Origin: Octopus vulgaris
Taxonomy: Eukaryota
Assembly: GCA_951406725.2 (NCBI GenBank)
Contig: OX597836.1
Coordinates: forward strand, 24,800,001 to 24,864,000
DNA: 64,000 nucleotides
Reading direction: 5' to 3'
Part shown: positions 46,449-47,156 of the stretch, in pieces
How positions within the stretch are numbered: position 1 is the first letter of the stretch
How the letters are laid out: every line of letters starts with the position of its first letter
Made by a program: the position numbers and the translations under genes
The notes under the pieces: model-generated
What the model saw: only the letters and a program-made list of their open reading frames with translations
Told to the model about the DNA's origin: nothing
Database searches by the model: none

Positions 46449-46489
<41 letters not shown>

Positions 46490-46822
46490 ACAATATAAGG
46501 AATGGCCCTGATAGGCCATTCGACTCACTAGAAAGAGTAGCCAAACTCAAACCGCTAAATAGTTGTAATTCTGAAATTGGAAGAGAAATAAAAACATTTA
46601 CCCTTTTCATCTCTGAAGAGCCTATATGCTCTAAATTTTCAAAATCCACCGCTACCGCGCGGTTTTCTCGACAGGATATATAAACTGCTGATTTAATTTC
46701 AAAATTAGCTAAAAAATCATTAATTAATAAATATAAGGGTAGCAAAAAAATTCTAGAAAAAATTCTAATAGGCTTGAGGCTTCCTTGCTGTAGCCTCGTG
46801 GACATATTCTCGTCCTAGGCTT

Positions 46823-46913
46823 CTCTGCTGATGAGACACGCCAGTTGTAAGCAAATTTAATTTAATTTAATTAATTTGTTTACAAGTTTGTCGAAACTAT
46901 GCATTGTCCAGAG
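46823..46913 (+). ncRNA. Intact type I hammerhead ribozyme, long stem II
   Basis: CTCTG-CTGATGA-GACA...TTGTAAGCAAATT/AATTTGTTTACAA...TGTC-GAAA-CT(ATGCAT)T-GTC|CAGAG. Predicted cleavage after 46908. Confidence 0.88.
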
Positions 46914-47156
46914 ATGAAAAGGGTAAATGTTTTTATTTCTCTTCCAATTTCAGAATTACAACTATTTAGCGGTTTGAGTTTGGCTGCTCTTTCTAGTGAG
47001 TCGAATGGCCTATCAGGGCTATTCCTTATATTGTTGAATGTATATTATATAGTCTTTGACTATTTTTTCTTTCTCACTAGACCACTGGTAGCGGAGAATT
47101 TTTTCTAGAATTTTTTTTGCTACCCTTATATTTATTAATATATATATATATATATA

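Follow-up and report, generated by a model that had tools for sequence, protein, structure and literature searches.

An insertion of a non-coding hammerhead repeat occupies positions 46479–47139 of the window, the 64,000-nt stretch of Octopus vulgaris DNA analysed here (contig OX597836.1, positions 24,800,001 to 24,864,000). It is one copy of a common family that a reverse transcriptase (RT) of the Penelope type (PLE) has likely copied into TA microsatellites at both nicked strands of the target, with mostly uncut RNA and, likely for a small minority of copies, self-cut RNA as template. The question addressed is whether cleavage by the hammerheads of PLEs and of retrozymes in animals takes place in vivo, and whether the cut RNA is used as template. 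In a census of family copies, read-through of the predicted cut is the rule, and a small excess of 5′ ends at +1, the first base after it, hints weakly at an occasional use of cut RNA for new genomic copies. This family-level hint, rather than the single junction, merits follow-up: a reproducible 5′-end excess at the cut base would give a cheap, genome-only assay of the cleavage step in any species, and the footprint, if true, would be in vivo evidence of germ-line ribozyme cutting and of cut RNA as a usable template. In the literature, supplements aside, no histogram was found that plots genomic ends against the hammerhead cut of PLEs or retrozymes.

Structure of the insertion

The insertion lies in a (TA)n target, whose left side (46454–46486) abuts the tail of an older repeat and whose right side (47139–47156) extends to an unrelated second hammerhead element beginning at 47157. 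On the top strand, the order is (TA)n; an inverted arm (46479–46615, minus strand) that runs from element position +137 back to +1; three extra junction bases, AAG (46616–46618, plus strand); an inverted upstream part of the unit (46619–46766, minus strand); a forward copy (46768–47139); and (TA)n. The forward copy is made up of plus-strand features, namely the leader 5′ of the ribozyme (46768–46821), the type I hammerhead motif (46822–46914), the segment following the predicted cut (46909–47051), which reaches the commonest 3′ end of the family, and an optional tail of about 88 nt (47052–47139) leading to a second 3′ end. From the position of the GUC triplet within the motif, the self-cleavage bond is predicted between 46908 and 46909 on the plus strand.

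The sequence-only reading had described about 130 bp from 46909 onwards as present in inverted form at 46486–46615, with identity ending exactly at the cleavage site. Sequence comparison bears this out: the arms 46479–46615 and 46909–47045 are 137 nt long and 97% complementary (4 differences), BLAST lengthens them outward to 46472 and 47051, and their identity ends at 46615/46909, 46909 being the first base 3′ of the GTC at 46906–46908. The second inverted pair that it reported was likewise recovered, 46723–46766 (minus strand) matching 47095–47139 within the tail at 98%. Judged from the unit order, this pair is the unit start, present once inverted and once in the tail as a tandem overlap, and would need no separate cause.

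The AAG either lacks a template or derives from a short repeat that lies 8 nt from the re-entry point. Beyond it, the inverted upstream part corresponds to the 148 nt preceding 46775 in other copies of the ~470-nt unit and skips the 5′ part of the ribozyme and the leader; its joint recurs in contigs from two other sequencing runs. The first 7 nt of the leader overlap the end of this inverted piece, that is, the forward copy starts 7 nt before the expected continuation point, a geometry which we take to be that of twin priming. The right arm of the same insertion crosses the predicted cut without a break, hence the template of the right-hand cDNA was uncut or re-ligated. A degenerate second hammerhead on the top strand (CTGAAGA, 46613) was discarded, the bases beyond it being the family's own upstream segment reversed. 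The ~470-nt unit contains no coding frame, and neither the unit nor the vicinity of the locus contains an RT or GIY-YIG frame.

The hammerhead motif and its conservation

The motif at 46822–46914 has the CUGANGA core, the GAAA, the NUH triplet and the stems I–III of a type I hammerhead. Stem I comprises 6 bp, with TCTCTG (46822–46827) paired to CAGAGA (46909–46914); the core reads CTGATGA (46828–46834), and GAAA and the GTC triplet follow. Stem II consists of 4 bp extended by a long AU-rich arm, and stem III of 2 bp closed by an 8-nt loop. Folding of 46820–46916 gave a z of -3.2. On both strands near the insertion, the only complete hammerhead cores are that of this motif and that of the neighbouring element at 47814. 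An Rfam search at gathering score matched only U6 and not the hammerhead, possibly owing to the length of stem II.

An intact ribozyme at 46823–46913 that cuts after 46908 had been proposed from the letters of the sequence. The motif and the position of the GUC stand; the extent is 46822–46914, and the 12-nt palindrome of stem III, which is perfect in 40/76 copies and has the present variant in 2/76, is interrupted by the T at position 46905. The predicted stem III self-duplex amounts to -6.7 kcal/mol in this copy, as compared to -15.9 kcal/mol with the family-type palindrome.

Stem I occurs in five variants among 76 complete ribozymes and is paired at 6/6 positions in 70 of them, and the stem III palindromes of the same 76 ribozymes differ among subfamilies by compensatory change. 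In an alignment of 9 sequences, to which no probability is attached because they are related, changes on both sides were found in 5/15 pairs, exceeding all slid controls. These stem variants with compensatory changes indicate that the hammerhead fold is conserved across subfamilies. A changed core, CCGATGA, is present in 10/76 copies, and one subfamily combines a GUA triplet with a stem III palindrome containing G-U; examples of such subfamilies are among loci L140, L102 and L271.

The repeat family

Sixty loci retrieved by two DNA searches define a non-coding, circularly permuted unit of about 470 nt that occurs in partial tandems. Its order is 46619–46766 reversed, leader, ribozyme, arm segment, and then the tail, which re-enters the unit start. 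An anchor at the 3′ end has 862 matches in the genome at ≤1 mismatch, and a second anchor, at +12..+34, has 820 sites. Of 118 anchor sites, 63 end near 47051, another 45 extend by the 88-nt tail to about 47139, and 10 continue into a further unit; tandem loci with two ribozymes include L026 and L058. The flanks are mostly (TA)n, and the 5′ ends are ragged and frequently joined to an inverted arm. Such arms stop almost anywhere along the unit, their length and inner junction vary from copy to copy, and many copies have none.

The tandems of the ~470-nt unit, the two fixed 3′ ends, the inverted 5′-truncated arms, the (TA)n flanks and the covarying hammerhead support PLE-type copying as the likely mechanism. 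The shared unit, tandem, tail, inverted-arm and (TA)n features point to kinship with metazoan non-LTR retrozymes and PLE insertions, and by these features the family is classified as a Penelope-type non-LTR retrozyme, the element itself being ordinary.

An intact frame of 781 aa with RT plus GIY-YIG is present in the genome in many copies. It belongs to a young autonomous PLE family (L358–L363, e.g. G000:C16:20834500-20841500), which has an additional upstream frame of 479 aa at two loci and, by a simple pattern, no hammerhead on the coding strand. None of 38 GIY-YIG loci (30 of the 148 listed GIY-YIG matches and 8 wider stretches) shares the ends of the octopus repeat as an autonomous partner would. 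L302, which has one 74-nt match, was ruled out as a partner, the match being a local fragment. As no autonomous element with the family's ends was found, the mobiliser is assumed.

5′ ends of family copies around the predicted cut

For an unbiased view, 100 exact anchor sites among the matches listed (contigs C1–C12) were traced upstream, with 5′ ends called against fixed references; nearest-neighbour calling was unsuitable, since neighbouring copies have inverted arms and TA runs in common. Their 5′ ends spread over the entire unit with a mean of 0.45% per nt; the hazard was 0.64% per nt at +45..+13, 1.04% at +12..+2, 0.24% at -1..-13 and 0.54% at -14..-45. Locally it was 0.22–0.33% per nt in GC-richer stretches and 0.44–0.67% in AT-richer ones. 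None of 66 sites in this set ended at +1, where one internal deletion was bounded.

In the census at the second anchor, the candidates were 94 + 73 of the 820 sites, picked out by two filters as being without the core base further up, an estimated 88% of the truncated copies; 154 of these 167 were examined, and the other 13 read as intact. After exclusion of 51 rows (intact, substituted or of another subfamily) and of the index copy, i.e., the insertion at 46479–47139, 115 ends called by hand and non-blind were left. From +12 to +1 they number 2, 8, 9, 32, 10, 8, 7, 4, 2, 4, 3 and 8, and from -1 to -13 they number 3, 0, 0, 3, 1, 3, 0, 1, 4, 1, 0, 0 and 2.

There are 8 ends at +1, whereas the ten bases flanking it average 2.7 each (P 0.012, conditional binomial). 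P becomes 0.08 against the 3′ flank alone, 0.16 without the three cases having 1–3 nt of microhomology (5/8 are free of it), and 0.027 without the internal deletion of L111. At this locus (G000:C6:4843705-4845525) the interior of the ribozyme is deleted exactly to the cut base, from three bases past the 5′ strand of stem I, and the stem I hairpin remains. Ends are sparser upstream of the cut, with 21 at +5..+1 and 7 at -1..-5 (P 0.013); the best change point from +7 onward is +1|-1 or -1|-2, and over the whole span of counted positions +6|+5 is slightly better. Each position from +7 to +11 has as many ends as +1 or more. The largest hot spot is +9 with 32/115 ends, which are due to AT microhomology, an AT or TAT abutting the (TA)n flank at this position. 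With the index copy included, +1 is the end of 9/820 sites (1.1%), while about 84% read through, extending beyond -13. The sequence-only reading had expected copy ends to be enriched at the base following the GUC; an enrichment is seen, 8 versus 2.7, but it concerns only 9/820 sites called non-blind and is not significant in other families.

An automatic census with a faulty filter, which flagged true junctions as intact and missed two subfamily spacers, gave 3 versus 2.8 and thus no excess. The first automatic census had given 9 ends at +1 including the index copy. L156 and L193 were then removed from it as +1 ends, belonging to a subfamily with a different stem III whose sequence runs beyond the cut. 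L077 begins at +1 and was left uncounted, having been found by a pattern starting there.

Other hammerhead elements and neighbouring sequence

The element at 47157–48280 is inserted into the right-hand (TA)n of the insertion and is unrelated to it, non-coding, about 865 nt long and very young (99% identical copies). Its hammerhead, whose core lies at 47814, shows no more than 2 clear pairs in stem I and has a stem II of about 85 nt, with a predicted cut after 47917. It has two 3′ ends, 48117-19 and 48280, and a perfect inverted arm of 260 nt, which in the copy within the window stops 59 nt beyond the predicted cut, in stem II. A third hammerhead element, at L308:190-570, adjoins a GIY-YIG domain, and a mere 40 nt or so separate its 3′ end from the cut; an identical junction is found in three fold-back copies of its family, +1 joined to +11 via 2-nt microhomology.

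Ends of both families were called by eye in the rows listed. The neighbour family (100 of 294 plus 100 of 130 rows) has 3 ends at +1 versus 2.0, two of them with 1-nt microhomology, and bigger peaks at +6, +8 and -4. The L308 family (100 of 115 rows) has 6 at +1 versus 3.1 and no step; three of the six share the same 2-nt microhomology, and peaks lie at +5 and -6. Pooled, the two families give 9 versus 5.1 (P 0.09), and all three families 17 versus 7.8 (P 0.005), with +6 and +5 reaching 16 and 14 in the three-family pool.

Elsewhere in the window, a U6 snRNA copy (46111–46217, minus strand, 102.5 bits), with a T run on the plus strand at its 3′ end, sits between 64-nt direct repeats at 46039–46102 and 46214–46277 (89%) and is probably a retrocopy within a SINE-like repeat. 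An open stretch of 172 aa at 42787–43305 resembles a decayed LINE C-terminal region.

Origin of the end of the inverted arm

The inverted copy had been interpreted as cDNA of an RNA whose 5′ end was made by self-cleavage. It is very likely first-strand cDNA from retrotransposition, and to this extent the interpretation holds; that the RNA end was made by cleavage has a likelihood somewhat short of even, since arms of the family end almost anywhere. Nor can a single junction be asserted to be a genomic record of ribozyme activity, as had been claimed, even if there is a reasonable, though lesser, chance that it is one. The stop of the left arm at +1 probably reflects ordinary truncation, and only tentatively do we consider it a run-off at the 5′ end of RNA cut at the predicted site.

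In the case of run-off, RT would have reached +1 as the terminus of a self-cleaved RNA, extended the cDNA by three bases without a template and then continued on a second template, a course of events which we regard as possible but short of probable. The exact stop at +1, the 3-nt filler and the lack of clear microhomology fit it, and +1 tops the 11 positions +6..-5 both in this family and in the three-family pool, where, however, positional scatter is wide, as seen from the counts at +6 and +5. If the excess is real, it would supply half to two thirds of the +1 ends, from which the limited likelihood that cleavage made the end of the left arm derives. Junctions at +1 are blunt or filled in 5 of 6 classifiable cases of the first census set versus 23/55 elsewhere, a difference that is not significant on the full set (Fisher 0.45), and L111 joins +1 to the third base past the paired stem I strand, as a jump across a cut ribozyme would. 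On the other hand, about 84% of the 820 sites read through, the index copy was chosen for the coincidence, and the re-entry region could equally have served as template for its last G plus AAG, which would shift the end to +2.

It is equally conceivable, and held with the same reserve, that the family bears no cleavage footprint: ends would be set by AT-rich microhomology with the (TA)n flank or with the other arm, and +1 would be one bump among many. Larger peaks elsewhere, such as that at +9 here and those of the other two families, agree with this explanation, as do the dependence of the hazard on base content and the modest result for the two independent families taken by themselves (P 0.09). 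RNA-seq of an anole PLE reportedly yielded no reads ending at the cut (PMC11167929). However, the context of +1 has 45% GC, so that few ends are expected, yet 8 were found; 5/8 of them are without microhomology, the best change point from +7 onward falls at +1|-1 or -1|-2, and the same lean is seen in all three families.

A real excess of structural origin is unlikely. It would arise if RT paused either at the three-way junction or on meeting the base of a stem III duplex of 12 bp between two uncut RNA molecules, a duplex predicted to start two bases upstream of the cut. The maintenance of stem III palindromes by compensatory change, the predicted duplex energy of -15.9 kcal/mol and the many ends directly 3′ of stem I, at +7..+12, would be in line with pausing, but a stall before the duplex should favour -1 equally, where 3 ends were found as compared to 8, and the longer stem II forms no comparable wall (hazard 0.54% per nt at -14..-45). 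It is highly improbable that a DNA transposon supplied the arms as its terminal inverted repeats, or that they arose by fold-back at the DNA level without reverse transcription: two inverted pairs do bracket the locus, but arm lengths and inner junctions differ between copies, many copies are armless, and fixed 3′ ends occur together with ragged 5′ ends and tandems.

Proposed course of the insertion

In PLE-type copying, the family RNA would likely be transcribed longer than one unit and bound by a PLE protein, which would nick (TA)n, RT then starting at either of two internal sites on both strands. At the index locus, the left (TA)n 3′-OH would have primed a cDNA running from the first 3′ end back to +1, where three bases were gained; this cDNA would have jumped to about 134 nt upstream of the cut and copied 148 nt more. 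From the right 3′-OH, a second cDNA would have started at the end of the tail, crossed the ribozyme and reached 46768, and the two cDNAs would have been joined with the 7-nt overlap, as in twin priming. cDNAs that end early and are joined could produce the ragged, inverted and tandem copies of the family. Templates would be mostly uncut or circular RNA, and on linear cleavage products RT would run off at +1 and have to jump. That a small share of templates consists of linear cleavage products is plausible and perhaps slightly favoured, cleaved RNA being a minor template at most. For the more general notion that copy ends of PLE hammerheads bear a faint self-cleavage footprint, a minority being reverse-transcribed from the linear 5′-OH product before RT jumps, we consider the case to be evenly balanced.

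Comparison with known systems

Metazoan non-LTR retrozymes are non-coding, AT-rich units, each a few hundred nt long and bearing a single type I hammerhead, that occur as monomers or short tandems and are thought to use PLE proteins (PMC7229834; bioRxiv 10.64898/2026.07.22.740005); models of retrozymes presuppose that the RNA is cleaved and then circularised (PMC7229834, PMC4209133). The octopus family resembles them in being short, AT-rich and non-coding, with one type I hammerhead per unit and tandem copies, but differs in its unit of ~470 nt and its extended stem II of ~55 nt. Unlike long retrozyme arrays, its copies are dispersed, mostly truncated and often inverted. None of the sequencing runs listed for the family is of RNA; they supply contigs, in which RNA ends are not visible.

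PLE insertions show inverted 5′-truncated copies, tails and a (TA)n bias (PMC8557442), and the PLE tail is defined by two internal RT starts (PMC11167929). With endonuclease-bearing PLEs the octopus family shares partial tandems, the inverted 5′-truncated arm, microsatellite targets, the optional tail between two 3′ ends, and a hammerhead with a short palindromic stem III (PMC8557442; PMC11167929; PMC4209133). In contrast to these elements it is without an open frame and without a partner having the same ends among the 38 GIY-YIG loci, and its tail measures ~88 nt, as compared to the 30–40 nt described for PLE insertions.

In R2, an HDV-like ribozyme sets the genomic 5′ junctions, and the template normally owes its 5′ end to cleavage (PMC3774820). 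The idea that a self-cleavage site fixes the end of the cDNA and so marks genomic junctions is common to both systems; unlike in R2, however, ~1% of the octopus copies end at the predicted cut, while most read through. This read-through majority agrees with the report that uncut RNA is the dominant PLE substrate in vitro (PMC11167929).
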